Part shown: piece by piece, positions 27,337 through 43,604 of the stretch
Layout: each line of letters opens with the position of its first letter
How positions within the stretch are numbered: position 1 is the first letter of the stretch
Source: Actinomycetota bacterium
GTDB lineage: Bacteria; Actinomycetota; Geothermincolia; Geothermincolales; RBG-13-55-18
Assembly: GCA_003598015.1 (NCBI GenBank)
Contig: QZKE01000006.1
Span: 3,188-67,187, forward strand
Direction: 5' to 3'
DNA: 64,000 bases
Program-made: the position numbers and the translations under genes
The notes under the pieces: generated by a model
The model's database searches: none
Seen by the model: the letters and a program-made list of their open reading frames with translations, nothing else
Told to the model about the DNA's origin: nothing

Positions 27337-27396
27337 CTACACATCCCTCCTATCCTCGATCTTTCCTACGAAAAACAACCCGGCTATCGCAACACC

Positions 27397-27423: not shown

Positions 27424-27442
27424 CACTCGCCGGTTTTGACTG

Positions 27443-27469: not shown

Positions 27470-27601
27470 TTAAAAGAATAATACAGGTCGAGGAAAAAAT
27501 CAAGGGGTCGGGATGAGAATCATATATACGCATTATGCGAGACATATTCCGGGATCTGGGACCATGTGCAAATCCCGTTATCTTACTAGTAAGATAGTAT
27601 T

Positions 27602-28453
27602 GTGATGGCTGCTTATTTGGGACAAAAGGGCAAGGGAATGGATCGTCTCGCTCCCGTGAAGGAGTGGGCGCAGTCTATAAGCAGGTATCTTTTCTCGCAT
27701 CACTCCGACTCGCCGAATAGCCGGGGATCTGACGAGAAGGCTCTCCGGGATCCCCAAGAAGTACTATACGTGTATTGGAGGAGAAAAACAGCTCTGCTTC
27801 TGCTCTCTCTCTTCTCCAGTATTGTAGCGGCGATATTCGTTATCAATTTCTTGTACAATTCCGCGATACTGCACATATCACTGGTTATTTTACTGCTGCT
27901 TTTGTCAGCATTCACATACAATATCATCTTCTATAAGGAACTCTTATGCATACTGGATGAAAGAGGGATTGTCTGCGCAGGTTCCCCAGACTTCGTCATA
28001 CCGTGGAAAGAGATCGAGTTTGTTGTGCCCGTTTTCAGAAGACCGGCTTTTATAACCTACAATGAGGGCGGGATGGAACATAGGGTGAGGCTGTGGAAGG
28101 AACGAAGTTGCCTGCTTATAAACACCTTTAATCCCGGTGCGATACTAGGTGATTATTACGCCGCTCTCTCAGCTCAGAGTTCTCTCAGGAAACGTCGCAG
28201 AATACAGGCCCTTGTTATGCCGGTTGAGTATGAATCCGACTTTGAACTCCCTGCGAAGTTCGATTATATAGAAGGCCTGCGTTGGAGCTGGTTCGCTTCC
28301 CGGGACAGGCTGGTGATCACCGAGCAGGATGCGACTTTTGTGATCTTTGAAAGACCGCATAGGTTTGCTTTCTGCGTTCTTCCCATTGAAGAGATGTTGG
28401 CCTCAATAGAGCTGCGTGGCGTTTCTGTCAGGTCATGGGATTACGAACTTTAA
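27602..28453 (+). CDS. Hypothetical two-TM membrane protein on the opposite strand, in a low-GC patch
   Basis: 283-aa ORF. Two adjacent hydrophobic helices (ALLLLSLFSSIVAAIFVINFLY; ILHISLVILLLLLSAFTYNIIFY) followed by a soluble domain. No motif recognised. The start could be 27605 or 27638. Confidence 0.6.
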   Translation: MMAAYLGQKGKGMDRLAPVKEWAQSISRYLFSHHSDSPNSRGSDEKALRDPQEVLYVYWRRKTALLLLSLFSSIVAAIFVINFLYNSAILHISLVILLLLLSAFTYNIIFYKELLCILDERGIVCAGSPDFVIPWKEIEFVVPVFRRPAFITYNEGGMEHRVRLWKERSCLLINTFNPGAILGDYYAALSAQSSLRKRRRIQALVMPVEYESDFELPAKFDYIEGLRWSWFASRDRLVITEQDATFVIFERPHRFAFCVLPIEEMLASIELRGVSVRSWDYEL

Positions 28454-28482
28454 GCGAGGTTCCCGTAACATTCGCTCAGCCA

Positions 28483-29544
28483 TCACACTGCTGATGAAGG
28501 AAGGCTATTGGTTGATCCCAGGGGAAGGATGGCGGCGGCGTCTACGTCCAGAGGAGATATGTCTCCATCCCTCAGCATACGCCACCCCAGAGAAGCGATC
28601 ATGGCAGCGTTGTCGGCACATAACTCCAGGGTGGGGTAGTAGAGCTCTATCCCCTCACCCTGGAGCGCTTCCTCCAGCCTCTCCCGCAGGTAGCGGTTGG
28701 CGGCCACCCCTCCTGCCAGGACTACGCGGCTCACGCCGGTCTCCCGGGCGGCCCTGGTTATCTTGCTCACCTGTACGTCAACCACCGCTGCCTGGAAGGA
28801 GGCCGCTATATCCTCCACGGGTATCTCCTCACCCCGCTCGCGCGCTTTCCTCACGAAATTGATCACCGCCGTTTTCAGCCCGGACAGGGAGAAATTGTAG
28901 CTGCCGTCGTGCATCATGGCCCGCGGGAACGCCACTGCCCGGGGGTCGCCCTGGCATGAGATACGGTCTATCACCGGCCCGCCCGGATAGCCCAATCCCA
29001 GGAACCTGGCCACTTTGTCGTAGGCCTCCCCCGCCGCGTCATCCACGGTTTCACCCAGGACGCGGTAGGTGCGGTGGGCGGGCATGTGCGCAAGCAGGGT
29101 GTGGCCACCCGAAACGACGAAGGCTACCAGGGGCGGCTCGAGCCCGGGGAAGCTCAGGAAGTTCGCATAGATATGGGCCTCTAGGTGGTTGACGGCGAGC
29201 AGGGGTATAGCGAGGGCGAAGGAGACAGCCTTGGCGGCGGTCAACCCTACCAGCAAGGCTCCGATCAATCCCGGACCGCGCGTAACCGCCACGCCGTCCA
29301 GGTCTGGATATCCCACGCCGGCTTCCCGCAACGCCTCTGCGATGGCGGGGAGCAAGGCTTCGAGATGAGCCCTGCTGGCCAGTTCGGGCACTACGCCCCC
29401 GTAGCTGGCATGCAGGTCGGCCTGGGACGATATGATCAGCGACAGCACCTCCCCGCCGCCGCGTACCACGGCCGTAGAGGTCTCGTCGCACGAGGTCTCT
29501 ATGCCGAGGATCAACCCGTTCTTATCAGTGGCCGGCATCTCCAT
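28483..29544 (-). CDS. tsaD: tRNA N6-adenosine threonylcarbamoyltransferase TsaD
   Basis: 353 aa. LILGIETSCDETS, GVAANRYLRE. Kae1/Gcp family. Confidence 0.95.
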   Translation of the reverse strand: MEMPATDKNGLILGIETSCDETSTAVVRGGGEVLSLIISSQADLHASYGGVVPELASRAHLEALLPAIAEALREAGVGYPDLDGVAVTRGPGLIGALLVGLTAAKAVSFALAIPLLAVNHLEAHIYANFLSFPGLEPPLVAFVVSGGHTLLAHMPAHRTYRVLGETVDDAAGEAYDKVARFLGLGYPGGPVIDRISCQGDPRAVAFPRAMMHDGSYNFSLSGLKTAVINFVRKARERGEEIPVEDIAASFQAAVVDVQVSKITRAARETGVSRVVLAGGVAANRYLRERLEEALQGEGIELYYPTLELCADNAAMIASLGWRMLRDGDISPLDVDAAAILPLGSTNSLPSSAV

Positions 29545-30028
29545 ACCTCTTCCACAAGTCGTCCAGGATGCAGCGATACTCGTTGGTGGTGATATCCTCC
29601 GTCCACATGATCAGTGCGTTCTCCATGTTGTCCAGGTAATAGTGCTTACGTTCCCCCATGATCTGAAATCCGAACCTGGCATACAGCTCGATGGCGGCCC
29701 GGTTGGATCTTCTCACTTCCAGCGTGAAGAAGCGCGCTCCCATCCCCTCCGCGCTGCGGATGAGCTCCAGGAGCAGCCTGGCTCCCAAGCCCCGCCGGCG
29801 CAGGTCTTCCAGCACCGCCAGGGTCATTACGTGGGCCTCGTCCAGGATCAGTAGCGCCCCTCCATATGCGACCAGCCTCCCATCCGACCTGGCCGTCAGG
29901 TAGCATCCCTCCCATTTCTCCAGCTCGTGCAGGTACATGCCGCGCGTCCAGGGGTTGGTGAAGGAGACCCTTTCCAGTTCCATGATCTCGTCCAGATCAT
30001 CCCTGACCATGCGCTTGATGCTCAGCAC
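29525..30028 (-). CDS. rimI: Ribosomal-protein-alanine N-acetyltransferase RimI (GNAT)
   Basis: 167 aa GNAT fold (RRRGLGARLL). Overlaps tsaD and tsaB in the conserved operon position. Confidence 0.85.
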   Translation of the reverse strand: MLSIKRMVRDDLDEIMELERVSFTNPWTRGMYLHELEKWEGCYLTARSDGRLVAYGGALLILDEAHVMTLAVLEDLRRRGLGARLLLELIRSAEGMGARFFTLEVRRSNRAAIELYARFGFQIMGERKHYYLDNMENALIMWTEDITTNEYRCILDDLWKRYGDAGH

Positions 30029-30738
30029 GAGGATCCCCTCTCATGGCCTCCGTATCTCCACAGGGCATCGGGGCGTCTCAGGTAGAGGGGCAGGAGATGA
30101 ACGGGGTCGATACACTCGCCTCTGGCGGCGGCGAGCCGGCAAAGCCGCGCCAGTCCCTCCGGCTCCGGCCATTCCCCGCTTTCTACCTCCATGCCCACGG
30201 GCCAGGCACGGGGATAAGCGTCGATACCGTTTCCCACCCCGATGATCCCGGCGCCCTCGCGCTCCAGCCAGCTGGAGAGCGCCGTGGCTGCCGCCTCGGG
30301 CGGGGCCACACACGGCTCCATCAGTGCCGCGGGATATCCGCCATCGAGACGGTAGAGGGCGTAGTACACCTCTCCCCTCCTGGCATCCACTGCGACGAAC
30401 ACCGCCTTTTTCTCGTCGCCGGCTCCTGCCGCCGTGACCATCAGGCTGTCGGGAGCAACCAGGGGCAGGTCGAGCACCGCCGTGGTGATCTTAGCCGCGG
30501 TCACCGCCACCCGCACCCCGGTAAAAGAACCGGGGCCCCTTCCCACCCCCATCAATCCCAGTTCACCGGGGCTCGTGCCCGCTTCGGACATGATCTCGCC
30601 GGCCGCTACGAAGAGCTGCGACACTCGCGAATCGCCCGCGATCTCGCGATGGTAGGTTCCCCCTGGTCCGGCGAGGACGAGGATTCCGCGCGGTGTCGCG
30701 AGGTCCATGGCCAGTAACCATGTATCATCTCGATACAT
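30022..30738 (-). CDS. tsaB: tRNA threonylcarbamoyladenosine biosynthesis protein TsaB
   Basis: The track ORF extends to 30852. ATG at 30738 is preferred because GGGGAG lies 5 nt upstream and the N-terminal 38 codons are Arg/Cys-rich overlap with tsaE. Motif LAMDLATPRG...GRGPGSFTGVRV. Confidence 0.85.
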   Translation of the reverse strand: MYRDDTWLLAMDLATPRGILVLAGPGGTYHREIAGDSRVSQLFVAAGEIMSEAGTSPGELGLMGVGRGPGSFTGVRVAVTAAKITTAVLDLPLVAPDSLMVTAAGAGDEKKAVFVAVDARRGEVYYALYRLDGGYPAALMEPCVAPPEAAATALSSWLEREGAGIIGVGNGIDAYPRAWPVGMEVESGEWPEPEGLARLCRLAAARGECIDPVHLLPLYLRRPDALWRYGGHERGSSC

Positions 30739-31228
30739 GTCTCTCCCCTTCAAACGGCATCCCCGGCAGGCGGTCTTCCCACTTGCCTCCTCGCGGCAGG
30801 AAGTGGAGGCAGCGCTCCTCATCGCCGCCGGCGAAGTCGAACCTGACTTCAAGATATCCCGGGGGAAAGAAATCGCGCACGCGGTCGCCCCACTCCACTA
30901 GCAGGACTCCCTCACCATCCAGATATTCATCAACTCCGATAGCGTAGAGGTCCGACGCGTCCTGCAAGCGATAAGCGTCGAGGTGGTAGAGGGGCAGCCT
31001 GCCGCAGTATTCACGCATGAGAGTGAAAGTGGGGCTGGTCACGTGCTCGCCGACTCCCATCCCGCGCGCGATGCCCTGTACGAAGCAGGTCTTGCCCGCT
31101 CCCAGCTCACCGACGAGCAGAACCACGTCCCCGGGGCGCAGCAACTCCGCAAGCGCGAGCCCCAGTCCGAACGTCTCCTCAGCGCATTCCGTCCTGAAAG
31201 ATCCGCCTCCCGCCATATCTTCGCTCAA
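30725..31228 (-). CDS. tsaE: tRNA threonylcarbamoyladenosine biosynthesis ATPase TsaE
   Basis: 167 aa. Walker A GELGAGKT, SPTFTL, HLDAYRL. Confidence 0.92.
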   Translation of the reverse strand: MSEDMAGGGSFRTECAEETFGLGLALAELLRPGDVVLLVGELGAGKTCFVQGIARGMGVGEHVTSPTFTLMREYCGRLPLYHLDAYRLQDASDLYAIGVDEYLDGEGVLLVEWGDRVRDFFPPGYLEVRFDFAGGDEERCLHFLPRGGKWEDRLPGMPFEGERHVSR

Positions 31229-31423
31229 GACACACTTCCTCCGTCGCCGGCCACTCCGTCCCTACCATCTTAATCGAATCCCGTGCTCGACAAGAAGCGC
31301 GCAAGGGCTCCGTGAGAGGTTGACTGCACTCGCCTCCCACGACAGTCCTCCCCGTTCCAGGATAATCAGGAACCCGCTCGATCTCGTAACCGACGAGAAG
31401 CGTGTAAGGGCTTGGGGTGGTTG

Positions 31424-32080
31424 TCAGAAGAGACCCATCTGTTCTGGTTCGGCTTCGGCCTCTGTCGTTGTCTCCATGCCCGCCTCCCCTTCTTCCTCCC
31501 AGCGCACCTTTTCCGAAGCGAGATGCTCCTGCAGCCTCTGAAAATCCTCTATGAGGGTGCTCTTTAGGGGCGGTTTATGCAGCGCGGCCGCGGGGTGGAA
31601 GAGCGGAACGTAGGCGAGTCCGCCCTTGCGGATCAGTTTGCCACGCAACTGGGTTATTCCGGTGGTGGTGGAAAGCAGCGTCTTAGTGGCATGGTTGCCG
31701 AGGGTGCAGATGATGCGCGGCTTGATGATGTCGATCTGTTTGAACAGGTATGGGGTGCATGTCTCCAACTCCTGCGGCTGGGGATCGCGGTTATCGGGCG
31801 GGCGGCACTTGAGGGTGTTGGCGATATAGACCTGGGAGCGCTGCAGGCCGATGGAGGCCAGGAGCTGGTCGAGGAATTGCCCCGCCGGTCCTACGAAGGG
31901 GATACCCTGCTTGTCCTCGTGGAAACCGGGGGCCTCCCCCACGAACATGATCTCCGCGTTTTCGTCCCCCGTACCCAGGACGAGATTCGTGCGGGTTTCG
32001 CCCAAACGGCAGCGGCGGCAGTCTTTTATGGCCTCAAAGAGCTCGCCTATGCTGGCGGCATCTTCCCATGCCTCAGCCAT
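31424..32080 (-). CDS. Family-4 uracil-DNA glycosylase with acidic C-terminal tail
   Basis: CRRCRL...GEAPGxxED...GxPFVGxAG...LKCRPP motifs. ATG at 32080 is preferred because AGGGGA lies 4 nt upstream and it starts 8 nt after the upstream gene's stop. The track start is 32134. Confidence 0.85.
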   Translation of the reverse strand: MAEAWEDAASIGELFEAIKDCRRCRLGETRTNLVLGTGDENAEIMFVGEAPGFHEDKQGIPFVGPAGQFLDQLLASIGLQRSQVYIANTLKCRPPDNRDPQPQELETCTPYLFKQIDIIKPRIICTLGNHATKTLLSTTTGITQLRGKLIRKGGLAYVPLFHPAAALHKPPLKSTLIEDFQRLQEHLASEKVRWEEEGEAGMETTTEAEAEPEQMGLF

Positions 32081-32088
32081 CGTATCCC

Positions 32089-32325
32089 CTAGTTGGAACA
32101 CCCGGTACAGCTCGATGCGGTACAAGAACCGCATGCCGAAGAGCCGGCCGAGGAATGGAAATCACCTGACGCTGCGGACCCGCTCTTGAAGCCGAACACG
32201 GAGAGGAGTTTTCTTATCTTCTTCTTGCCGCATGCGGCGCAGCATTCGGCCTCATCGCCCATACTGCGGGCGAAATACTCGAACTTCTCCCCGCAGTCCT
32301 CACACCTGTATTCGTAAAAGGGCAT
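32089..32325 (-). CDS. FmdB-family CxxC-CxxC zinc-ribbon protein
   Basis: MPFYEYRCEDCG...CCAACG. ATG at 32325 with AAGGAAGG upstream. The track start is 32382. Confidence 0.8.
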   Translation of the reverse strand: MPFYEYRCEDCGEKFEYFARSMGDEAECCAACGKKKIRKLLSVFGFKSGSAASGDFHSSAGSSACGSCTASSCTGCSN

Positions 32326-32568
32326 TGTTTCGCACCTTCCTTTCCTCAACTTCATTTTAAACACAAGGAGCGTGGCGGGCAACGAAATGCCTCAGGTGCG
32401 GGATCGGGAGGCCTAAAACAACCTCGTGTCGCTGCCTTGCATAGCGGGAGAACGCGGCGCACCGCTACGGTCTCTGCCTATCCGCATGCGTCGTTGTTGC
32501 GCGGGCAACCTGTTTATGACAATGTTTCATAGATAAGACCATGGAGGGGCGTCATCAGCAGGTGGTGC

Positions 32569-35500
32569 ATGGAAAACGGTGCGATTCTGCTAAGTGAAGA
32601 GCGGCCCAGAAGGATATGGCCCTTGCTGGTCATCGCCATCGTCATCGCGTTCTATTTCCACTCCATACTCTTCCTGAGCAAGGTGCCGTATGTATCCGAC
32701 CTCAAGACCTACTACTATCCCGGCTGGACCTATTTCTCCCAGGCTTTCCGTAACGGAGGACCGTCATTCTGGTGCTCGGGCATATATTGCGGATTCCCCC
32801 TCTTCGCGGACAGCGAGATGGGGCTCTTCTATCCCTTGAACCTCCTGCTCTTCCCCCTGCCGGCCACGATGGGGTTCAACTATTCCATAGTCCTCCACTA
32901 CCTGTTGGGAGGATGCTTCACCTTCATCTACTGCCGCCGGCTGCGTATTAGCCGTCCCGCTGCCCTGTTCGTTTCCATTCCCTTCGTGCTGGGAGGTTTC
33001 TTCCTCGCCCACATGGTCCATCCCAACGCCGTGGCCACGGCGGCCTGGATGCCCCTGTTCCTCTATTTCCTGGAGAGAGCACTCTCCGAGGGGAGGCTTT
33101 CCTTCTACGTCGCGGCTGGAGGGGTGCTCGGCCTGCAGTCGCTTTCCGGCTTTATCATGGTTCCCCTCATAGAGGTGGTTATCGCCTTTTTCTACGTGCT
33201 CTTCTACCCGGCCGCACAAGGGGAGAGCAGGCGCCGGCGCATCCTCCAGGCTTTGGGCGGGCTGGCCATCACCGCGGGGTTGGGAGCCGGCCTGAGCATG
33301 ATCCAGAACCTGCCCACCTATAACCTGGTGCAGAGTTCCTATCGCGCCGGCGGTCTATCCGGGCGCATCTCCGACGTGGGGAGCCTGCCACCCGCCCAGC
33401 TGGCGGGGCTGGCCTTCCCCCGCCTCTTCGGAAAAGGGGGGGCGCAGGGGAATTACCTCGGAGCATGGACATTCGAGGAGGCATATGCGTATATCGGCAT
33501 ACTACCCCTGCTTTTCGCCCCGGCCGCATTGTACAAACCGCGGCGCTGGCATGCGGTGTTTTTCCTCTGCCTGGGGGCGGCCTCGCTACTGCTCATCCTG
33601 GGCGATCGCGGGCTGCTGTGGCCGCTGCTGCGCCTGCTGCCCGGGTTCAACGTGCTCAAGGGCGCGAGCAGGTTCCTGCTGACCTTCAACCTGTCCGCGC
33701 TGCTGCTCGGAGGCATGGGCTTCGAGCGCTGGCGTAATGGCGATCTGTCTGAGCGCATGCGCTCCCGCCTCGTGCGTTTCTGGGTTATTGCGGCCGCCGT
33801 AACAACCACCATCATCGCACTCTTCGTGCTCCTCTACCGCTTCAACCCGCTGGGCTTCAGGGACCTGGCATCGGCCGCGGCACGTCCCTTCCTCGCGGGG
33901 ATCAAACTCGAGCCGCAGGCGGTGGTCGACGGCATCTACGCTTTCTTCACCTCGCTCCGCCTCGATCTCCTGATACCGCTGGTGACCCTCGGGCTCTTCC
34001 TCCTGATCATCCGCAACGGCCGGGGGCAGCGCAGGCCTAACCGGCTCAAAGTGGGCCTGGCGGTGATCATCGCCGTTGCCGACGTACTCATCGTCGCCAG
34101 CCTCATCCTGCATCCGGTGCCCCGCTCCAAGGTCGAATATCGGCCGGAAGTGGTGAATGTGCTCGACGAGGCTTCCGGGGGCGCAAGGGTAGCGCTCGTC
34201 AAGGAGCCGGGCGTCAACCGCGGGGATTTCTCCCTTTCTTCAAACCAGTTGCTTCCCTACGGACTCGAGGATGCCTATGGATTCTCCACCATACCGCCGG
34301 CTCGCCTTGATCGCTTCCTGGGACTTCTCAACGCCTCCACCTCGACGTCCGCGATGAAGCTTCTCGATATTGGTTTATCCTTCAGCAACCTGGTCCGTAT
34401 AAAGGGCGTGCCCTATAACCTGTCGACGCCTTTCTCCATTCCCGGCGGCCTCGGCGCCAACCGCTATATGTGTCCGCAGGAAACCAAGGGCAAGGAACTG
34501 CGTTTCCTCCTGGACGGCGAGATACTGGAAACGGAGGAATCGGGCCGCCTCTACATCAAGCTCAACTCCATCAGTCGCGGACAGATACGTACCCATCCCG
34601 TCCTGCTCCTCGAGAAGGACGCCGGGGCCGGCGAGTACCTGCTCGAGGTGATAAACGGCGAGCAGGCTGCCACCTTCAAGGTCATAAGCTTCAAGTCACC
34701 CGGCTATGGAGGGGGGCGTACCGCGCTGGAGGTCAGGGTGCCCCTGGACAGACTGGGTGAGGCGGATGAGATAATCGCCACCACGTTGAGCGACCGCAAT
34801 CTCGAGGGAACGCGCCTCCTGGCCTTGACCCTCATCGACGAAGACGGCAGGGGTGTCCCGCTCGGGCCATGGCCGGTAATCTACTCGGACGGCAGATACG
34901 CGGTTTACGAGTTGCCGGACGCGCTACCCCGTGCCTTCACGGCCTGGGACGTCATGTGGACTGAAGACTGGAGACAAGCCGTCGATCTGACCTGGAACGA
35001 AGGCATCCTCCCCGAGGAGATAGTCCTCGCGGAAGATGAGGTCGATGCTACCCTGCGCGCGGCCATCTCTTCCCTCGGCCCGCCGGAACATACGACGCAT
35101 ATCGAGATAGTTGAGGAAGACGGAGGGCACATGCGGCTGCATACCTCGGGCGAGGACGATACCATCCTGGTCATCAACGTGGATTATCTCCCCGGATGGA
35201 AAGCCCGCGTAGACGGGGCGGAGACACCCCTCTTCTCGGCCTACGGCTTTCTCCATGCTCTCTATCTTCCCGCGGGAGAGCACGAGGTAGAGCTGGATTA
35301 CCGGTCTCCAGGTCTTGCGGCCGGTATCCCCATCACGGCCGCATCACTCGCCCTTATGCTGCTCCTTCTCGTCATTTTCAGGAGAAGGGAAGCGGCTGCG
35401 GCAAAGGCCGGGGGTGATGGCGAGCGGACTATACCACCACCCGATCCCGGGGGGATCAGCGCCTTCTTCCCCTGCTACAACGATTCCGCCACCCTGCAGG

Positions 35501-36147
35501 GCCTCATCGAAAAAGCCCTGGAGGTCCTGGGCGACCTCGCCGGGGACTTCGAGGTGATCATCGTCGATGACGGCAGCTCGGACACCTCGGGCGCGGTTAT
35601 CGATTCCCTTGCCGCGAGGTACGACAGGGTGCGGGTAGTCCGTCACGACCACAACCGCGGGTACGGGGCGGCGTTGCGCAGCGGCATCAAGACCTCCACC
35701 AAGGACTGGGTCTTCTATACGGATAGCGACGGTCAGTACGACGTAGAGGACCTTCGCCGCCTCCACGCCTATAGCGGCGCCGTCGACGTGGTCAACGGCT
35801 ACAAGCAGAACCGCAGCGACCCCTGGTATCGCATAGTGCTCGGCTCGGCTTACAACGCGGTCATCAGGCTTATTTTCGCCATCCCCATCCGCGATACGGA
35901 CTGTGATTTCCGCCTTATGCGCGGAGATATCGTGCGCGGCCTGGACCTGCGCTCGGAGGGGGGCGCCATCTGCGTGGAGATGGTCAAGGGGTTGCAGGCA
36001 AGCGGCGCCCGTTTCGCGGAGATGCCCGTGGGGCACTTCCCCCGCGAAGTAGGTAAAAGCCAGTTCTTCCACGTAAAAAATCTGGTTGTAATGGGTGGAG
36101 AACTTGCGTCATTATGGTGGAGGTTATTGAAACAAGGCGAGGTATAA
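32569..36147 (+). CDS. Fusion protein: YfhO-like polytopic GT-C membrane glycosyltransferase (about aa 1-915) plus cytoplasmic GT2 polyprenyl-phosphate glycosyltransferase domain (about aa 930-1192)
   Basis: 1192 aa. More than 10 N-terminal TM helices with an acidic first loop. About 370-aa extracytoplasmic domain. One late TM (GIPITAASLALMLLLLVIF). Then a GT2 signature: ISAFFPCYND...VIIVDDGSSD...YTDSDGQYD. Confidence 0.75.
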   Translation: MENGAILLSEERPRRIWPLLVIAIVIAFYFHSILFLSKVPYVSDLKTYYYPGWTYFSQAFRNGGPSFWCSGIYCGFPLFADSEMGLFYPLNLLLFPLPATMGFNYSIVLHYLLGGCFTFIYCRRLRISRPAALFVSIPFVLGGFFLAHMVHPNAVATAAWMPLFLYFLERALSEGRLSFYVAAGGVLGLQSLSGFIMVPLIEVVIAFFYVLFYPAAQGESRRRRILQALGGLAITAGLGAGLSMIQNLPTYNLVQSSYRAGGLSGRISDVGSLPPAQLAGLAFPRLFGKGGAQGNYLGAWTFEEAYAYIGILPLLFAPAALYKPRRWHAVFFLCLGAASLLLILGDRGLLWPLLRLLPGFNVLKGASRFLLTFNLSALLLGGMGFERWRNGDLSERMRSRLVRFWVIAAAVTTTIIALFVLLYRFNPLGFRDLASAAARPFLAGIKLEPQAVVDGIYAFFTSLRLDLLIPLVTLGLFLLIIRNGRGQRRPNRLKVGLAVIIAVADVLIVASLILHPVPRSKVEYRPEVVNVLDEASGGARVALVKEPGVNRGDFSLSSNQLLPYGLEDAYGFSTIPPARLDRFLGLLNASTSTSAMKLLDIGLSFSNLVRIKGVPYNLSTPFSIPGGLGANRYMCPQETKGKELRFLLDGEILETEESGRLYIKLNSISRGQIRTHPVLLLEKDAGAGEYLLEVINGEQAATFKVISFKSPGYGGGRTALEVRVPLDRLGEADEIIATTLSDRNLEGTRLLALTLIDEDGRGVPLGPWPVIYSDGRYAVYELPDALPRAFTAWDVMWTEDWRQAVDLTWNEGILPEEIVLAEDEVDATLRAAISSLGPPEHTTHIEIVEEDGGHMRLHTSGEDDTILVINVDYLPGWKARVDGAETPLFSAYGFLHALYLPAGEHEVELDYRSPGLAAGIPITAASLALMLLLLVIFRRREAAAAKAGGDGERTIPPPDPGGISAFFPCYNDSATLQGLIEKALEVLGDLAGDFEVIIVDDGSSDTSGAVIDSLAARYDRVRVVRHDHNRGYGAALRSGIKTSTKDWVFYTDSDGQYDVEDLRRLHAYSGAVDVVNGYKQNRSDPWYRIVLGSAYNAVIRLIFAIPIRDTDCDFRLMRGDIVRGLDLRSEGGAICVEMVKGLQASGARFAEMPVGHFPREVGKSQFFHVKNLVVMGGELASLWWRLLKQGEV

Positions 36148-36148
36148 C

Positions 36149-37195
36149 ATGCAGGAGAAGGTAGAACCCGGGGAATACTATCATGGCAAAAGGGTCCTGG
36201 TAACCGGTGGGTTGGGTTTTATCGGCAGCAATCTCGTGCGCCGCCTGGCAGGCCTGGGCGCCAGCATCACGGTGATCGACGCCTGCTTCCCCGACCAGGG
36301 CGCCAATCTCTTCAATCTCAAGGACGTCCTCGACGAACTCGTGCTCGTGGTTGCGGATATAGGCTCGGTGGACGAGATCTCTGCTTTCATCGTGGACCAG
36401 GAGATAATCTTCAACCTCGCCTCCTGCGTCAGCCATATCGATTCTCTGCGCAACCCCTTGCGGGACCTGGAGCGTAACTGCCTGAGTCAGCTCCGTTTTC
36501 TGAACTGCCTCACCGAACTCAGCCCGTGCGCGCGCATAATCTATACGGGCTCGCGCAGCCAGTACGGAAATCCTGTCTACGTCCCCATCGACGAGGACCA
36601 TCCTCTCAGACCCCTGGACATCAACGGCGTACACAAGACGGCGGCCGAGGAATATCACCGCATCTTCCACGAGCAGGGAAATATACGCTATACCTCCCTG
36701 CGGCTGACCAACATCTACGGCCCGCGCCACCAGATGCACCATGACGGCCAGGGCTTCCTCAACTGGTTTATCCGCCAGGGACTCACCGGCCAGGAGATAT
36801 GCGTCTACGGGGGCGGGGAGCAGGAGCGCGATTTCCTCTACGTCGAGGACGTGGTCGACGCCCTGCTGCGCGTGGCTCCGGATGAGCGCTGCGAGGGTCG
36901 GGTGTTCAACGTCGTCTCGGGCATCCCCATCACCGTTGCCCAGGCCGCCGCCGCCATCTGCGATATCACTGACAACAGCTGGCGTTGCGTGGCGTACCCG
37001 CCCGAGCGCAGCGCGGTGGAGCCGGGCAATATACGCCTTGACGGATCCCGCCTGCAGGTACTGACGGGCTGGATGCCCCGCTACGGCCTGCAGGCGGGTT
37101 TGCGGGAAACCGTCGACTTCTACCGTCAACACGGTCACCGCTATTTCCACGGCCCCAAAGGCAACCTGGTTTTGAGCGACAAGGGGATGGAGTGA
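36149..37195 (+). CDS. NAD-dependent sugar epimerase/dehydratase (extended SDR)
   Basis: VLVTGGLGFIGSNL Rossmann motif. GSRSQYG. The active-site position reads NGVHK where YxxxK is expected. Confidence 0.85.
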   Translation: MQEKVEPGEYYHGKRVLVTGGLGFIGSNLVRRLAGLGASITVIDACFPDQGANLFNLKDVLDELVLVVADIGSVDEISAFIVDQEIIFNLASCVSHIDSLRNPLRDLERNCLSQLRFLNCLTELSPCARIIYTGSRSQYGNPVYVPIDEDHPLRPLDINGVHKTAAEEYHRIFHEQGNIRYTSLRLTNIYGPRHQMHHDGQGFLNWFIRQGLTGQEICVYGGGEQERDFLYVEDVVDALLRVAPDERCEGRVFNVVSGIPITVAQAAAAICDITDNSWRCVAYPPERSAVEPGNIRLDGSRLQVLTGWMPRYGLQAGLRETVDFYRQHGHRYFHGPKGNLVLSDKGME

Positions 37196-38310
37196 ATCCT
37201 GCGGAGATACCCTTCCTTGACCTGTCCCGGCAGAACGAGGAACTGGCAGGCGAGTTCGCGGCGGCATTCTCCCGTTTCATGCAGGAGGGTAACTTTATCC
37301 TCGGCCCCGAGGTCGCATCCCTGGAGGAGGAGTTCACAGCGTATTGCGGAGCCACCGCGGGAGTAGGCGTGGCATCGGGAACCGATGCCCTGCTGCTCTC
37401 CCTCAAGGCCCTGGGGATCGAGCCGGGTGACGAGGTCATCACCGCCGCTCTCTCGGCACCTCCCACCGCCGTGGCCATCTCCCTTGCCGGCGCGCAGCCC
37501 GTTTTCGCCGATATAGACCCGGTATCGCGCTGTCTCTCACCGCATGCCTTGAGGGAGAAGGTTTCCGGGCGCACGCGCTGCGCGGTAGTCGTACATCTCT
37601 ACGGGCGCATGGCGGACATGCCTGAGATCGCGGGTATCGCGGAAGAATGCGGGCTCGCCCTCATCGAGGACTGCGCCCAGGCTCACGGAGCTTCCCTGCT
37701 CGGCAGGGCGGCGGGCACGTGGGGACAGGCGGGCTGCTACAGCTTTTATCCCACCAAGAACCTGGGAGCATACGGCGATGGCGGAATGGTCGTGACCGGT
37801 GACGATGACCTGGCAAGCCACCTGCGCAGCCTGCGCGATTACGGCCGCACGGATCGCGACCGCCTGGGCGAGATCGGCTTCAACAGCCGGCTGGATGAAC
37901 TACAGGCCGCGTTCCTGCGCATCAAACTCGTGCGACTTGAAGCCTGGAACCGGCGCCGGCGCGAACTGGCCCGGCGTTATCTGGAAGGACTAGCCGGATT
38001 GCCGCTGGGGCTGCCGGATTGGGACGGCGAGCGCAACCACTGTTTCCATCTCTTCGTCGTGGAATACGAGGAGCGTGATGACCTCCGCATTCACCTGGCA
38101 AAACGGGGCATTCAGACCGCCGTCCACTATCCGGTCCCCCTGCATTTGCAGGAGCCTTACCTTGCGGGGGGCCTGCCTTCATGCTCATGCCCCGCCGCGG
38201 AAAGGACCGCGAGGCGCGTCCTGTCCCTGCCCCTCTATCCTCACCTGAGCGATGAAGAACAGGACCGGATCATAGAGGCGATCATCTCCTTCTTCCGCGC
38301 TTTGGCTTGA
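37192..38310 (+). CDS. DegT/DnrJ/EryC1/StrS-family PLP-dependent sugar aminotransferase
   Basis: IPFLDLSRQ, GTDALLLSLKALG, SFYPTKNLGAYGDGG. The GTG start overlaps the upstream stop (GTGA). Confidence 0.9.
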   Translation: MNPAEIPFLDLSRQNEELAGEFAAAFSRFMQEGNFILGPEVASLEEEFTAYCGATAGVGVASGTDALLLSLKALGIEPGDEVITAALSAPPTAVAISLAGAQPVFADIDPVSRCLSPHALREKVSGRTRCAVVVHLYGRMADMPEIAGIAEECGLALIEDCAQAHGASLLGRAAGTWGQAGCYSFYPTKNLGAYGDGGMVVTGDDDLASHLRSLRDYGRTDRDRLGEIGFNSRLDELQAAFLRIKLVRLEAWNRRRRELARRYLEGLAGLPLGLPDWDGERNHCFHLFVVEYEERDDLRIHLAKRGIQTAVHYPVPLHLQEPYLAGGLPSCSCPAAERTARRVLSLPLYPHLSDEEQDRIIEAIISFFRALA

Positions 38311-38318
38311 AGCCCCGG

Positions 38319-38837
38319 TTATAGCCGGGTCGTAAGGCGCTTGCAGTCCATCTTGCGCGGCTGCGGTTCATCACGCGTGGCGTACCCCACCGGGATGAGC
38401 GCCATGGGACGCAGGTCTTTCACCAGGCGCAGGGCTTGCACTACGTCCTTTTCCCTGAAGGCACCCACCCAGCACGTTCCCAACCCCAGTGCTGTCGCCG
38501 CCAGCAGCAGGTTCTCGATGGCCGCCGCCGTGTCCTGGATCGAGTACAACTCCACGCCACGCTGGCCATAGCTGAGAGAATGCGCGGCCAGGTCCGCGCA
38601 TACCACGATGACTACCGGCGCCTCGGCCAGGAATCCCTGGCCCAATGCCGCCGCGACCAGCTCTCTCTTCATCTCCACATCACGGACCACGATGAAGCGC
38701 CACGGCTGAACGTTGCCTGCCGAGGGCGCCTGGCAGGCACAGCGCAGAAGTTCCTCCACCATCTCATCCGGCACATCCCCGGCGGGGTCGAAGGAGCGCA
38801 CGCTGCGCCGTTTCTCCATGGCTTCGAAGACATCCAT
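38319..38837 (-). CDS. Nitroreductase-family protein
   Basis: RRSVRSF...APSAGNVQPWRFIVV. Confidence 0.88.
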   Translation of the reverse strand: MDVFEAMEKRRSVRSFDPAGDVPDEMVEELLRCACQAPSAGNVQPWRFIVVRDVEMKRELVAAALGQGFLAEAPVVIVVCADLAAHSLSYGQRGVELYSIQDTAAAIENLLLAATALGLGTCWVGAFREKDVVQALRLVKDLRPMALIPVGYATRDEPQPRKMDCKRLTTRL

Positions 38838-38854
38838 ACGCGCCCTCCCTCGCC

Positions 38855-39802
38855 TTACACCAGGTCCGCATACGCTGGTATGCCCGCTACGGATGCAGCG
38901 TGCATAACCGCGTTGCGCACCGCCTGTGACATGATAACCGCGCCGACTACGCCTATCGCGTCAGCCGGGGCCTCCACCTGGCCGGTGGCCGCAGCGAAAA
39001 TTAGGTCGCCGTCGAGCTTGGTGTGGCAGGGCGTAATAGCCCTGGCGAAGCCATTGTGCCCCCTCTGCGCCACCCAGTTGACATCCGTCTTGGAGAGCCT
39101 GGCGTTGGTCACGATCACTCCCAGGGTGGTGTTGGTAAGGGGCGGAGGCTCGCCGGCCACATTGAGCATGTTACCGATACACTTCTCCGTACACGCGAAA
39201 CCCCCTTCGGCCAGGCGAGCGCCGGCGATGACCTCACCCCTTTCATCCACGACGTCGCCGAAGGCGTTGACCACCACCAGGGCGAATACCTTGACGCCAC
39301 CCGCCTCGAACCAGGCACACCCGATGCCGCTCTTGGTGCAGTTGGCGGGCCCCAACATCATCCCTACGCTGGCGCCCATACCCGCTCCCAGGTTACCCTG
39401 GCGTGTTATTTCTTCCGTGGCTTCCAGGCAGGCACGGTAGCCCATCTCCGCGTCCGGACGTGCCGTGGAGTCCCCTACTCCCAGGTCGAAGATGACGCCG
39501 GCGGGGACGATGGGTACGCGCGCGACCCCCGTCTCGAAGCCGATACCATGTTCCTCGAGGTAGCGCACGACCCCTATCGTGGAAGCCAGGCCGAACGCGC
39601 TGCCCCCTGAGAGGACGAAGGCATGAACCTCCTCCACCAGGTTAACCGGGTTCAGCAGGTCTGTTTCCCGCGTTCCGGGCGCTCCACCACGTACGTCCAC
39701 TCCGCCCTTAGCCCCCGGCGGCAGCAACACAACGCTACATCCGGTCAGGCCAGCTTCGTCCTGGGCGTGCCCCACCTTGACCCCATCGATCCTGAAGGCC
39801 AT
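38855..39802 (-). CDS. P1/S58-family (DmpA-like) aminopeptidase
   Basis: GLTGCSVVL...GGAPGTRETDLL...VLSGGSAFGL. ATG at 39802 directly follows GGGAGGAGGT. The track start is 39895. Confidence 0.85.
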   Translation of the reverse strand: MAFRIDGVKVGHAQDEAGLTGCSVVLLPPGAKGGVDVRGGAPGTRETDLLNPVNLVEEVHAFVLSGGSAFGLASTIGVVRYLEEHGIGFETGVARVPIVPAGVIFDLGVGDSTARPDAEMGYRACLEATEEITRQGNLGAGMGASVGMMLGPANCTKSGIGCAWFEAGGVKVFALVVVNAFGDVVDERGEVIAGARLAEGGFACTEKCIGNMLNVAGEPPPLTNTTLGVIVTNARLSKTDVNWVAQRGHNGFARAITPCHTKLDGDLIFAAATGQVEAPADAIGVVGAVIMSQAVRNAVMHAASVAGIPAYADLV

Positions 39803-39949
39803 ACCTCCTCCCTTCTTGCCGCTCTTCCCGCGAAGCCGCTGGTGCGGCAGATCAGGGGACTGGAACCCTTCATCGCTCGAGAAGGGCTCCACCATCCATC
39901 TTCACCCACTGTCCCGCGCATGGGATGGAATCGTTCTTCCCATCTTTCT

Positions 39950-40960
39950 TCAGCGCCCGAAGCATGCCTCGAGGAAGGCGTCCATTTCCACGTTGAACTC
40001 CTCGGTGCGCTCCAGGTGCGTCGAGTGGCCGGCGTCTTCATAGACCACCAGGCGGGCGTCGGGAAGCACTGCGCATGTCCGGCGGTTAACCTTGTCGCTG
40101 GTGAGTTTATCTTTCGTCCCCACGAACATGATGACGGGGACATCCACATCGGGCAGGTGTTCCTCGACGTGATAATCGAAACACGCCTTGGCCGCCAGGG
40201 ACGTCACCGGTACCGGGGTCGAAAAAGTCATCTCACGCTGCAGCTCCACTTCATCCGCCGGAGGTTTCTTGCCGAAGGCGGCCCAGCGGCAAATGAGATA
40301 GGCGAACGATGTATTGCTCAGCATCTTCCTCGCCATCTCCACCAGGCGGTTCTGCCGCCCTCCCATGACCAGGAAAGGCGAGAGCGGATAGGGATAGAGC
40401 CGGCTGACCAGGCTACTCATGTATATACCCTGCAGGACATCGGTGCCGGTCGAATCGATGATCATCATCCCCTTGAGCCTGCCGCGGTACTCCTCCCCGA
40501 AATGCTCGTGGAACTTGAAGGAGGTGAAACCACCCATGCTGTGCCCGGCGACGACGAACTCCTCCGGATCGAAGGCATCCACCACCGCTTTGAGGTCCTC
40601 CGCCAGGCGGTCAATGCTGAAATCCCCGCTGAGGGGCACGGCGGACTTGCCGTGCCCCCGCTGATCCATGGAGACCACCCGGTAGCGGTCGCACAGATGG
40701 GACATCTGGTGCCGGAAGATGGTGTGATTACATGTCCAGCCGTGCGCGAAGAAGACGGTAGGGCCGGCATCTCCACAATACTCTACATGCAAGGCAGTGC
40801 CGTCTCGCGACGTTATTCCCTCCCTGACCTCCCTGCCCGCGGTACAGCGGGGATCCCGGGCACTTCCTTCTGACCTGAGATGGTCGAGACGCCGCACGAT
40901 AGCCGGGGTCGCCAGTATCCCCAATGATATGACGGCGGCTCCCACCGTGTATTTCTTCAC
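39950..40960 (-). CDS. Alpha/beta hydrolase with N-terminal membrane anchor/signal
   Basis: HGWTCN..., nucleophile elbow GHSMGG. GTG at 40960 with AAGGAG 6 nt upstream is preferred. The track start is 40993. Confidence 0.8.
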   Translation of the reverse strand: MKKYTVGAAVISLGILATPAIVRRLDHLRSEGSARDPRCTAGREVREGITSRDGTALHVEYCGDAGPTVFFAHGWTCNHTIFRHQMSHLCDRYRVVSMDQRGHGKSAVPLSGDFSIDRLAEDLKAVVDAFDPEEFVVAGHSMGGFTSFKFHEHFGEEYRGRLKGMMIIDSTGTDVLQGIYMSSLVSRLYPYPLSPFLVMGGRQNRLVEMARKMLSNTSFAYLICRWAAFGKKPPADEVELQREMTFSTPVPVTSLAAKACFDYHVEEHLPDVDVPVIMFVGTKDKLTSDKVNRRTCAVLPDARLVVYEDAGHSTHLERTEEFNVEMDAFLEACFGR

Positions 40961-40994
40961 TGCCGCTCCTTTCCGTTCTACCGCACCCTGCACG

Positions 40995-42515
40995 CTAATC
41001 GCCGAACCGGATGATGTCCTCTGCGAACCTCAGGGCATCCTCCCTGTTCTTCAACGCGCCCTCCAGCTGTGCGACACGCACTTCCTTGAGTATCTCACCG
41101 ACGGCCGGTCCCTCCGGCAAGCCCAGTTCCTCCAGGAGATCGCGCCCGCCGATGAGGGGAGGTACGTCCATTTCCCGCCAGTATGCCTCCAACAGCCGGT
41201 TGCAGACCGCCACGTAATCCTCCAATTCCTCCGATGTCGAGAGTGGCCCGCGGGTGGCAAAACGGTCCGCCGTGGAAAGCAGGACCACGTCGACCAGCTC
41301 ATCCCCCAGCCTGGAGACGATCTTCCTGAGCTGCCGGTCCGAGATGCGCTGCGAGTCGGCCAGTCCAATATCCATGTGCTTCCCCACCGTATTGAACAGG
41401 TAATCGCTGGCCCTGCGTGAGAGGCGCAGCCGCTCCGCCAGGGCTTGTACCGCATCCTGGCTGTGCTTCTGATGGGAATAGAAGTGGATGCGCCCCGATG
41501 CGTCGCGCGTTACGGTACTGGCCTTTCCCACGTCGTGGTAGAGGGCGGCAAGGCGCAGAAAGGAGCTGCGGGGTTGCAGATCCTGTAGGGTCCGGCACAT
41601 CCATTCCGCGATCCTTCCGGCGTAAAGAGGAAAGGCATCGCCCGCGTCGGCAAGCAGGCGGTCGAGTTCCTCGAGTGTGAGAAGGGTGTGAGACCATACA
41701 TCCAGATGGTGGTAGGCGTTCTGCTCCAGGCCCACCGTGTCGGTAAGGTCGGGAAAGACATATTGCAGCAGACCGGTCGATTCCAGCTCAGCAAATATGC
41801 GGGAGGTGTGCGGTGAGAGCAGGGTCTCCATCAGCTCCACGGTTATGCGCTCTCCCGGGACCTTGGTAATGAGAGAAGCGTACTTCTTCATATGGTTCAG
41901 GGTGCGTTCCTCGTATTCCAGCCCCAGCATGTGGCGGAAGCGCATAGCCCGCACCAGGCGCACCGGGTCCAAGAGGAAGGACTCGTTGGAGCACTCCCGC
42001 AGGATACCGCGGGAGAGATCGCGCCAACCATAATGCTTGTCTATGAGATCGCGCGGCAACCGCAATTCCTCCTGCGCCAACCTGTCGACTTCGACCGCCA
42101 TGGCGTTTATGGTGAAGTCCCGATAGGAGAGGTCTTCCTCCACGCTCATGCCCTTGATGGGGGAGAGGTCGAGGGTTCGCCGCCGCTCGCCTTTATCGAT
42201 GACCACCCGAAAGGTCCTCTCCTCTTCGTGGAGACAGAACTCCTTTCCCTTCCAGCGCACAGCCACTTCCACGGCAACTGCTTCGGGATCCGCGGAGGTG
42301 ATGAAGTCGATATCCTCGGGCACCTCGCCCAGGAAATAGTCTCTCAAGTAGCCGCCAACCAGGTATATCTCGCCCAGTCCCAGGGAAGCCAGGCAGGAAA
42401 GAAGGGCGCCCAGGAATGGGTCTGCGCGGTCGATGTCCTCGAGGGTCAGCCTGTTGGGCAGGGTGCTCAACCTTCCTCCTTGCGTTTCTTGCATGGCCGG
42501 TATCCGCGCCAACAT
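40995..42515 (-). CDS. cca: CCA-adding tRNA nucleotidyltransferase with HD domain
   Basis: YLVGGYLRDYFLG...DIDF, RDFTINA, HD region HDVGK. An alternative TTG start at 42467 follows AAGGAGGAAGG. Confidence 0.88.
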   Translation of the reverse strand: MLARIPAMQETQGGRLSTLPNRLTLEDIDRADPFLGALLSCLASLGLGEIYLVGGYLRDYFLGEVPEDIDFITSADPEAVAVEVAVRWKGKEFCLHEEERTFRVVIDKGERRRTLDLSPIKGMSVEEDLSYRDFTINAMAVEVDRLAQEELRLPRDLIDKHYGWRDLSRGILRECSNESFLLDPVRLVRAMRFRHMLGLEYEERTLNHMKKYASLITKVPGERITVELMETLLSPHTSRIFAELESTGLLQYVFPDLTDTVGLEQNAYHHLDVWSHTLLTLEELDRLLADAGDAFPLYAGRIAEWMCRTLQDLQPRSSFLRLAALYHDVGKASTVTRDASGRIHFYSHQKHSQDAVQALAERLRLSRRASDYLFNTVGKHMDIGLADSQRISDRQLRKIVSRLGDELVDVVLLSTADRFATRGPLSTSEELEDYVAVCNRLLEAYWREMDVPPLIGGRDLLEELGLPEGPAVGEILKEVRVAQLEGALKNREDALRFAEDIIRFGD

Positions 42516-43184
42516 TATAGCTCATGGAGAGGGCCGTTCTGAGCGGAGCATGTCAACAGAGCGAGACCGTTGCACGGAGTACACCGTCCAGCCTGGGTGT
42601 TATGTAATGGGATCTGGGGTCAGATCTTGGCATTTCGCCACCCACCCTTGCAATAGAAGAGACCTGCGGCGGGCGAAACGCAACACCTGACCCACACCCT
42701 ACGGGGAAAAGAACGCACGGGCGCGGGCAGGCGAACGCGCTTGGGCATAGACTGTATAGAAATCACTGCCTGGGAACTGCGGGGTCGGTCCGAGCGACGG
42801 GCCGATAGGCGCCGCACGGGCATATCCACAGCGATGGGAGAGACGATTACGCCCGGGTGTCACCCTGTTATTAAACCATTGGCCCGACGCCGCCGGTGTG
42901 CGGGCACGGCCTCCATCTCCGCCGCCCCCAGCCCGGGGAATTACCATGTCGGGCGAGCGGAGTTATCGCGCCATGTGGTGGCTCAGGGCTTGATAAGCAC
43001 TGAGCCAGCCCGAGAACTATGGGGTTGGTCGCAGCGGGTACGCGCAAGTGAAGATGAGGTCTCTTCCTCCTATCCCGCGTATTGCGCGCCGAGCGAGACC
43101 ATTACCCCAAGGCTCGGGCCGAAAGTACAACCAGGGCCGGTTGAAGAATCGGAGCGAAGACCGTTACCCCCAGGCCCAGGCACA

Positions 43185-43604
43185 CTAATCCCGCGTCCAG
43201 TATACGCGGGCGAAATCGGAGTGATGCTGCCACTGTATGTCCAGGTGGCCGGAGTATGCTTTCTCGAACTCCTTTCCCAGCCGCTCGGCCAGAACGCGAT
43301 CGGTTGTCTCTATGACGATCTCGTCTCTGCTCTCCTCGATATGATAGATGCGGGCGGCGATATTCTTGTGCAGTTTCTTCTGCGCGACACTGCGTATGAG
43401 GTTCTTCGCTTCCTCTCTATGTGTATTAAGGAAGTCCCCCCTGAGATAGACCACACCGTCAACTTGACCTTTTGCTACTCTCTCACAACCCGGGCACAGG
43501 TGTTTCTCCCACCCGTTGCGCTTCATCGCCTTGGCCCTGGCCGCTTCGTCGAATTCCCACTTCTGGTCGATACAAACGGCATAGCAGGAAGGACATATCT
43601 TCAT
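43185..43604 (-). CDS. Small CxxC...CxxC zinc-ribbon protein, function unknown
   Basis: 139 aa. MKICPSC...LCPGC followed by an alpha/beta domain. No catalytic motif recognised. Confidence 0.7.
   Translation of the reverse strand: MKICPSCYAVCIDQKWEFDEAARAKAMKRNGWEKHLCPGCERVAKGQVDGVVYLRGDFLNTHREEAKNLIRSVAQKKLHKNIAARIYHIEESRDEIVIETTDRVLAERLGKEFEKAYSGHLDIQWQHHSDFARVYWTRD

Follow-up and report, generated by a model that had tools for sequence, protein, structure and literature searches.

The stretch of DNA analysed here, referred to below as the window, comprises 64,000 nucleotides of an Actinomycetota bacterium (class Geothermincolia; assembly GCA_003598015.1, contig QZKE01000006.1, positions 3,188 to 67,187 of the forward strand). 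On its plus strand, at positions 32569-36147, lies a gene whose product of 1192 amino acids (aa) joins two glycosyltransferases (GTs), namely a membrane enzyme of the YfhO type, which belongs to the GT-C class, and a family 2 glycosyltransferase (GT2) with the GT-A fold. The frame is uninterrupted and ends with a TAA stop codon, and the gene is supported by the open frame, Pfam matches, orthologues and an AlphaFold2 (AF2) model. Two further plus-strand genes follow. The first (36149-37195; 348 aa), starting after a gap of one nucleotide past the TAA, encodes an extended short-chain dehydrogenase/reductase (SDR) of a non-canonical subfamily (Pfam Epimerase, PF01370, 150.8 bits). The second (37192-38310; 372 aa) encodes a DegT/DnrJ/EryC1-type aminotransferase dependent on pyridoxal phosphate (PLP; PF01041, 358 bits over the full length), and its GTG start overlaps the TGA stop of the SDR gene as GTGA.

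Between tsaE (30725-31228) and alr (44239-45372), every other gene with Pfam support is on the minus strand; these genes encode a UDG, a Zn-ribbon protein, a nitroreductase, an S58 peptidase, an alpha/beta hydrolase, Cca and an NTPase. An earlier note on this DNA, made from the letters alone, had described a single open reading frame (ORF) carrying both a YfhO-type GT-C enzyme and its GT2 partner, tightly followed by an SDR and a DegT gene in the sole plus-strand block of this interval. The gene order and strands are as described, and for the two-enzyme reading of the ORF Pfam, the conserved residue Asp44, the AF2 model, Foldseek searches, sequence conservation and an orthologue split into two genes all agree.

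Architecture of the fusion protein

In Pfam, the fusion protein matches YfhO (PF09586) in two stretches with a score of 61.2 bits, the cut-off being 28.5; residues 852-923 correspond to the end of the profile on its C-terminal side, and a six-frame search of the genome also recovers the YfhO match. Residues 110-228 give a weak match to PMT_2, and residues 964-1078 match Glycos_transf_2 (PF00535) with 88.8 bits. The AF2 model, for which the input alignment contained 56 sequences, has a predicted local distance difference test score (pLDDT) of 87.1 and a predicted template modelling score (pTM) of 0.80.

Transmembrane (TM) helices were assigned from the AF2 helices and the charges of the loops; a plain Kyte-Doolittle scan under-counted them. 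The resulting topology has 14 TM helices with both ends in the cytoplasm and agrees with the positive-inside rule, as each predicted inner loop carries a cluster of Arg and Lys residues (RR124, RRRR221-224, KPRR323-326, RWR..RMRSRLVR, and RNGRGQRRPNRLK at residues 482-494). The GT-C core with 13 TM helices and a cytoplasmic N-terminus occupies residues 1-513 (32569-34107) and is backed by the AF2 helices, the loop charges and Foldseek. It is followed by a large extracytoplasmic domain, residues 514-915 (34108-35313), which is rich in beta strands in the model. These 402 residues between TM13 and TM14 are net acidic (36 K/R vs 61 D/E) and probably form the acceptor-binding part of the enzyme. 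In the model the chain returns to the cytoplasm through TM14 (residues 916-948; 35314-35412), which is the native last helix of YfhO and is directly followed by the motif RRRE. The earlier note had predicted just such a polytopic N-terminal part, with a large outer domain and a final returning helix, and the AF2 helices and loop charges bear it out. The YfhO protein of Bacillus subtilis was described as having 13 predicted TM helices and an outer loop of 389 aa (PMC5836110).

GT-C enzymes have as their hallmark an acidic residue located in outer loop 1 (PMC5836110). In the fusion protein the candidate catalytic acid is Asp44 (codon GAC, 32698-32700, plus strand, checked in the sequence), which starts an amphipathic helix in the first extracytoplasmic loop and is invariant in 56/56 aligned YfhO proteins, both fused and stand-alone. 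R540, W877 and G903 are also invariant in this alignment. As Asp44 and about ten more positions are the same in the fused proteins and in distantly related stand-alone YfhOs, the GT-C active site appears to be retained in the fusion. Among solved GT-C enzymes, Foldseek matches the N-terminal part to AftD (6w98, E 3.9e-10, TMq 0.35) and EmbC (7bve, E 1.4e-6); a sequence search of the Protein Data Bank (PDB) detected no YfhO structure. Judged by profile and fold, residues 1-948 are a GT-C module of the YfhO family; the doubt whether this part would match any GT-C family is settled by the Pfam score together with the AftD and EmbC matches.

The cytoplasmic GT-A domain (residues 963-1192; 35455-36144), assigned by PDB and Foldseek matches and by its motifs, is of the polyprenyl-phosphate glycosyltransferase type. 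Its closest sequence matches in the PDB are ArnC (9hwj, 2.9e-20), DPMS (5mlz, 5e-11) and GtrB (5ekp, 4e-10), and the top 20 Foldseek matches are nearly all ArnC, DPMS and GtrB, with the exception of AftD matches to the N-terminal part. The motifs VIIVDDGSSD (996-1005) and YTDSDGQYD (1050-1058), already pointed out in the earlier note, are present; their cores DDGSSD (1000-1005) and DSD (1052-1054) are retained in the consensus of the 56 sequences. Against the NCBIfam models the best match is again ArnC (NF007986), at 76.7 bits vs an equivalog cut-off of 529, so that the domain does not qualify as an ArnC orthologue; PpgS and PgfS are also among the matches. From these similarities, the GT2 domain is a polyprenyl-phosphate glycosyltransferase by type and probably makes a lipid-linked sugar donor.

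The alignment covers ArnC residues 10-218, which is the entire catalytic domain, and stops before the TM helices of ArnC; the fusion protein terminates 13 residues past the position aligned to ArnC 218. Thus, the GT2 domain has no C-terminal TM helices of its own, as are found in ArnC, GtrB and CsbB, and ends with an amphipathic helix at 1169-1189. In this it resembles Ppm1-D2 and PpgS, which are TM-less synthases. According to the model, its only tether is TM14 together with a flexible low-confidence linker of 14 residues, GDGERTIPPPDPGG (residues 949-962; 35413-35454), the pLDDT of residues 949-953 being below 50. This linker, as the pLDDT and the junction in a split orthologue (see below) suggest, is the site of fusion or fission.

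Distribution of the fusion and of the GT2-SDR-DegT cassette

A word-indexed search of 5.8 billion proteins gave about 40 clusters of 1183-1219 aa that contain both domains end to end, at 51-77% identity. Their sources are assemblies of NCBI, ENA, JGI and Logan, and several bear the label Actinomycetota. When 1.84 billion representatives at 50% identity were searched exhaustively, the full-length proteins fell into three clusters (P0004; P0087, 39%; P0088, 36%), and among the proteins listed, these three are the only clusters in which the GT2 stands C-terminal to YfhO (YfhO::GT2). Wherever the source of a full-length copy names a taxon, it is Actinomycetota, and in the survey of the class it is Geothermincolia; the nearest named genomes are those of Candidatus Solincola, class Ca. 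Geothermincolia. Among 51 species genomes of Geothermincolia, the gene is intact and free of stops in about 20, at identities down to 37%; these represent three families of the order, and a fourth family through one genus. The search for other YfhO-GT2 fusions that the earlier note had suggested thus finds them both in global protein collections and in part of the genomes of the class.

The chromosomal site is kept in four related loci (L001-L004), where tsaD-rimI-tsaB-tsaE-UDG-Zn-ribbon is followed by fusion-SDR-DegT and then by nitroreductase-S58-cca-alr. The GC content of the cluster is like that of its flanks, which, together with the conserved site, makes the cluster a stable resident. 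A horizontal or recent insertion was considered and is ruled out by the same two observations. In the family to which the window belongs, 18 genomes have the fusion, intact or decayed, together with the adjoining orthologous DegT gene, and 6 have neither. The fusion is a genuine and old gene. Public annotations call its product only 'glycosyltransferase' or 'hypothetical', and a literature search, in which subscription journals were thinly covered, found no description of a YfhO-GT2 fusion. The one-chain form is apparently a previously undescribed variant of multi-protein surface glycosylation.

Two variations of the locus were seen within the order. In a single genus (genomes G030-G032, for example G030:C25 and G031:C134, and locus L004, 8001-11456) the fusion is frameshifted, stopped or split, and the downstream DegT gene is intact. 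In four genomes from two other families (G022, G023, G024, G027), the DegT gene comes directly after the fusion, at a gap of 20-200 nt, and no SDR gene lies between them.

A metagenomic contig (L087) carries the same site, tsaD...tsaE-UDG-Zn-ribbon, with the two halves as separate genes. One encodes a 954-aa stand-alone YfhO (P0044), 38% identical to residues 1-950, which ends just past the last helix; the other encodes a 257-aa GT2, 60% identical to the C-terminal part, whose TTG start overlaps the YfhO stop as TTGA. The junction is collinear, the split YfhO ending in ...RDGERP* where the fusion protein reads ...GDGERTIPPPDPGGISAFF.... Judged from these two sequences, the fused and the split form differ by a small change at the linker.

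Beyond the class, orthologues of the GT2 domain (43-52% identity) occur as stand-alone ORFs of 235-255 aa in more than 70 loci, most of which continue with orthologues of the SDR and DegT genes. These loci belong to Anaerolineae and other Chloroflexota, Acidobacteriota, Chthoniobacterales, Acidimicrobiia, Sumerlaeota and others. Polytopic ORFs on the same strand and no more than 3.5 kb away (n = 58) included 23 PMT_2, 14 PMT, 6 GtrII and 2 YfhO proteins, and one each of Alg9, STT3 and GT87. Two Chloroflexota loci (L033, L053) have the four as separate genes in the order GT2-SDR-DegT-YfhO. Other neighbours of the cassette (n = 96) included class-I methyltransferases (17) and GtrA-family flippases (8); an example is the order PMT_2 - methyltransferase - GT2 - SDR - DegT - MFS in L063. 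The co-occurrence of the cassette across phyla and the joint presence or absence in the family indicate that the four functions (GT2, SDR, DegT and GT-C) behave like a single module. The cassette as such appears to be uncharacterised.

The same GT2 subfamily (43-50% identity) has also entered other fusions, namely GT2::PMT_2 (P0123, P0126, P0133, P0121), GT2::YfhO in the reverse order (P0159) and DegT::GT2 (P0102, 628 aa; P0186, 624 aa); their domain order and partner family differ from those of YfhO::GT2. Among distant homologues there are, in addition, proteins of 1350-1430 aa that combine a MOP/Wzx-type flippase (PF01943, PF13440) with YfhO (P0055, P0060, P0061, P0065, P0068 and others).

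The SDR, the aminotransferase and the genomic surroundings

The SDR can be aligned along its entire length with enzymes of the GalE and UXS types. In the alignment with GalE (4zrm), Asn159 (codon AAC, 36623-36625, plus strand) falls on the catalytic tyrosine of the YxxxK motif. This tyrosine is present in ArnA, UXS, GalE and RmlB, whereas in the cassette SDRs it is replaced by Asn159. The replacement is not peculiar to the window: Asn159, Arg136 and His96 are invariant in 58/58 cassette orthologues, which come from many phyla, and Asp44 of the SDR, a residue of the NAD type, is found in 57/58. At the Ser/Thr motif the protein reads S135-R136-S137 where the family consensus is T-R-Q (motif [TS]-R-[QS]-x-Y-G in the 58 orthologues), which is neither T-S-E, as in ArnA and UXS, nor T-D-E, as in RmlB. 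The NCBIfam models agree: the score is 35.2 bits against the ArnA cut-off of 777, and 118.8 bits against the RmlB cut-off of 365.1. The protein is thus assigned neither to the ArnA C-terminal/UXS group nor to RmlB, of which it lacks both T-D-E and the tyrosine. By sequence, the cassette SDRs apparently constitute a distinct, uncharacterised subfamily of extended SDRs; no description of a tyrosine-less or Asn-variant extended SDR was found in the literature search, again with thin coverage of subscription journals.

In the aminotransferase, the motif SFYPTK contains Lys189, the PLP-binding lysine. It is encoded by the only DegT gene in the genome. Its best relatives of solved structure are 7b0d (354 bits), DesV (2oga, 333), QdtB (3frk, 285), WlaRG (about 250) and WbpE (245), whereas the scores are lower for structures of ArnB (170-190 bits) and for perosamine synthases (about 150 bits); for 7b0d the literature search found no accompanying paper. 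The ArnB model of NCBIfam gives 206.2 bits at a cut-off of 631, so the enzyme is not assigned to ArnB. DesV, QdtB, WlaRG and WbpE aminate C3, and by this resemblance the regiochemistry is probably also C3.

The fusion gene is preceded by a divergent intergenic region of 240 nt (32329-32568), shared with the minus-strand Zn-ribbon gene, which is presumed to be the promoter region. It contains no plus-strand match to the sigma-70 consensus, and the counts of the plus-strand promoter and terminator scan upstream of the gene are at the chance level. No RNA families of Rfam were found in positions 26000-46000 of the window.

Elsewhere in the same genome, contig C10 (locus L085) has a gene for a TMEM260-like GT-C (697 aa, 4390-6483) followed by one for a stand-alone YfhO (790 aa, 6429-8801), with no adjoining GT2 gene. 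In another contig (C85, locus L086, 3001-6441), genes for an NTP_transferase, an RmlB-like 4,6-dehydratase and a 228-aa GT2 stand in a row, followed by a histone-deacetylase-like gene and a polysaccharide deacetylase gene; this row possibly encodes a second lipid-sugar route. The genome has one LCP ligase, and its placement in Actinomycetota suggests a monoderm host that lacks lipid A.

Several features of the neighbourhood are recorded for completeness. The alpha/beta-hydrolase gene (39950-40993), between the S58 peptidase gene and cca, is missing from the syntenic loci L001-L003 and looks like a lineage-specific addition. Upstream of cca, at 42516-43184, there is a gap of about 670 nt with neither a Pfam-supported ORF nor an Rfam family at the gathering score. 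Positions 27000-28500, between groES and tsaD, have a low GC content (0.48-0.49 vs about 0.62) and contain a plus-strand ORF (27602-28453, 283 aa) without a Pfam match.

Proposed pathway, alternatives and known systems

The reading we favour, with a probability of roughly 0.7, is that the locus encodes a compact lipid-carrier glycosylation pathway, in which the maker and the user of the lipid-linked donor are combined in one protein. From the domain families, the topology, the conservation, the split orthologue and the joint inheritance of the module we infer its chemical steps, and with them the sugar, the flippase and the acceptor, as follows. The SDR and the DegT enzyme would convert a nucleotide sugar via a keto intermediate to a nucleotide amino sugar, the chemistry of the SDR being non-canonical. 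The GT-A domain (963-1192), held at the membrane by TM14, would load this amino sugar onto polyprenyl phosphate, as its homology to ArnC, DPMS and GtrB suggests. The polyprenyl-phosphate sugar would be moved to the outer leaflet by some flippase, to which no gene is assigned. Finally, the YfhO core (1-948) with Asp44 would pass the sugar on outside the cytoplasm, to an acceptor that the outer domain of 400 residues would bind; a non-teichoic glycopolymer of the wall or a surface protein is a more likely acceptor than a teichoic acid.

Several observations weigh against this scheme. A GtrA/GtcA-family protein (PF04138) was found neither in the genome itself nor anywhere among the 51 genomes of the class, in which YfhO-type GT-Cs and their GT2 partners are nearly universal; the same search gave matches in 8/14 control genomes. 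By its flippase, the three-component glycosylation system is therefore not represented in this genome. TagF-type teichoic-acid polymerases are likewise absent from it, which makes a classical teichoic acid an unlikely acceptor. The cluster contains neither a methyltransferase nor an acyltransferase, an SDR without the catalytic tyrosine does not readily account for the keto sugar that the aminotransferase needs, and the donor sugar cannot be read from homology, as the GT2 domain scores far below the ArnC cut-off. The genome is 89.5% complete.

There are several other ways to interpret the locus. The YfhO part could mainly be a membrane anchor or activator of a TM-less synthase, the lipid-linked sugar being consumed by other GT-C enzymes. 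Such an arrangement has a precedent in Rv2051c, a bi-domain fusion of a membrane protein with a polyprenyl-phosphate-mannose (PPM) synthase, consisting of an Lnt-type D1 and the synthase D2 (PMC3460810), and it would fit both the missing TM helices of the GT2 domain and the two further GT-C genes on contig C10. However, the invariance of Asp44 and some ten other positions between fused and distant stand-alone YfhOs speaks for the retention of the GT-C active site, and in other phyla the cassette is nearly always beside a GT-C of some family, as a donor-consumer pair predicts and a generic anchor does not; we consider the anchor decidedly unlikely. If the GT2 were an ordinary glycan-building enzyme, the YfhO part would handle a larger lipid-linked glycan in the manner of a ligase or polymerase. 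The GT2 family is indeed very broad and no equivalog cut-off is reached, and YfhO is also fused to MOP/Wzx-type flippases (PF01943 + PF09586), the usual movers of undecaprenyl-diphosphate oligosaccharides. But the best matches in sequence and fold are all polyprenyl-phosphate GTs (ArnC, DPMS and GtrB, with PpgS and PgfS in NCBIfam), the flippases that flank the cassette in 8 loci are of the GtrA type, which serves monosaccharide carriers, and the cluster has no phosphoglycosyl transferase or other GT, which together render a glycan builder highly improbable. As to a frameshift or an assembly error that falsely joined two genes near 35.3 kb, it could draw on the two-gene form in L087 and on the decayed and fragmented copies in one genus (G030-G032, L004), yet the same 1183-1219 aa architecture recurs in some 40 independent clusters from four sources, about 20 species genomes have it without internal stops, and the linker is collinear with the unfused junction, so the chance of an artefact is practically negligible.

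Two more alternatives concern the chemistry. The SDR and the aminotransferase might act after lipid loading, so that a polyprenyl-phosphate hexose would be oxidised and aminated at the cytoplasmic face while still lipid-bound, in the way that DprE1/DprE2 act on decaprenyl-phosphate ribose. This would suit the DegT::GT2 fusions (P0102, P0186) and the unusual SDR with its Asn in place of Tyr and the invariant Arg136 and His96; moreover, there is no enzyme to pull the unfavourable transamination of a nucleotide sugar, unlike in the Arn pathway with its formyltransferase. On the other hand, the characterised close relatives of the aminotransferase (DesV, QdtB, WlaRG, WbpE, NtdA) all act, to our knowledge, on nucleotide sugars or sugar phosphates, neither the SDR nor the DegT enzyme has membrane segments, and substrate channelling explains a fusion with GT2 equally well. 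We therefore find amination on the lipid unlikely. A more radical variant of our preferred pathway would be a self-contained synthase-translocase-transferase, whose own YfhO core carries the polyprenyl-phosphate amino sugar across the membrane without a flippase, and in which the tyrosine-less SDR is a new former of keto sugars, possibly a C3 oxidase that feeds a 3-aminotransferase. It is based on the Geothermincolia GT2/GT-C pairs existing without any GtrA-family protein, and is at present rather doubtful.

Thus read as a donor maker joined to a donor user, the fusion can be compared with several characterised systems. In the three-component CsbB/GtcA/YfhO glycosylation of teichoic acids, known from B. 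subtilis, Staphylococcus aureus and Listeria monocytogenes (PMC5836110, PMC8035078), a cytoplasmic GT2 also charges polyprenyl phosphate, and a YfhO GT-C, which has about 13 TM helices as well as a large outer domain and a final TM helix, also uses the lipid-linked sugar outside. In contrast, here there is one polypeptide, whose GT2 part is devoid of TM helices; GtrA/GtcA is missing from genome and class, as are TagF-type genes from the genome; the donor is probably an amino sugar, predicted to be made by the products of two presumably co-transcribed genes; and the YfhO profile is matched at low identity (61 bits). The earlier note had drawn its analogy from teichoic acids, and the acceptor part of that analogy does not hold, as the genome has no TagF-type glycerophosphotransferase.

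With the Arn pathway, which places L-Ara4N on lipid A, the locus shares its logic: an SDR, a DegT enzyme and an ArnC-like GT2 acting on undecaprenyl phosphate precede an outer GT-C, and among solved structures ArnC comes closest to the GT2 domain. The earlier note went further and spoke of the same enzyme set. The general logic survives, but the enzymes differ, as the cassette SDR lacks both the tyrosine and the T-S-E of ArnA (having Asn159 and S-R-S), the aminotransferase resembles 3-aminotransferases more than ArnB (245-354 vs 170-190 bits), the cluster includes no formyltransferase, deformylase or small ArnE/F-type flippase, and the GT-C is of the YfhO type and not ArnT (PMT_2).

Ppm1 of Mycobacterium tuberculosis (Rv2051c) consists of D1 and the TM-less PPM synthase D2, which in M. 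smegmatis and Corynebacterium glutamicum are split into the interacting proteins Ppm2 and Ppm1 (PMC3460810). It likewise has a TM-less polyprenyl-phosphate sugar synthase at the C-terminus of a polytopic protein, with adjoining genes in relatives. However, D1 is an Lnt-type N-acyltransferase and not a consumer, whereas here the producer and the consumer of one lipid intermediate are joined. In the Pgf system of Streptococcus mutans, the GT2 PgfS, the YfhO-like PgfM1 and PgfM2 and the SDR-family epimerase PgfE present a similar set, but as separate proteins and without an aminotransferase; the fusion protein scores 49.7 bits with the PgfM2 model, 31.4 with PgfM1 and 46.8 with PgfS, the equivalog cut-offs being 500-1500. 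This system demonstrates that YfhO-type enzymes can glycosylate proteins.

The physical coupling of polyprenyl-phosphate sugar synthases, flippases and GT-C enzymes is a question common to the glycosylation of teichoic acids, O-antigen, lipid A and proteins. A natural fusion, an unfused orthologue at the same locus and separate fusions of the same GT2 subfamily to PMT_2, YfhO and DegT are strong comparative evidence that the producer and the consumer work as a complex. The fusion offers a single, confidently modelled target (pLDDT 87) for the structure of the whole reaction cycle and of a YfhO enzyme, and the absence of GtrA throughout the class makes the flippase question directly testable. 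The cassette extends over many uncultured phyla, with an SDR that breaks the YxxxK rule, and its chemistry, once worked out, would establish a new way to make lipid-linked amino sugars.

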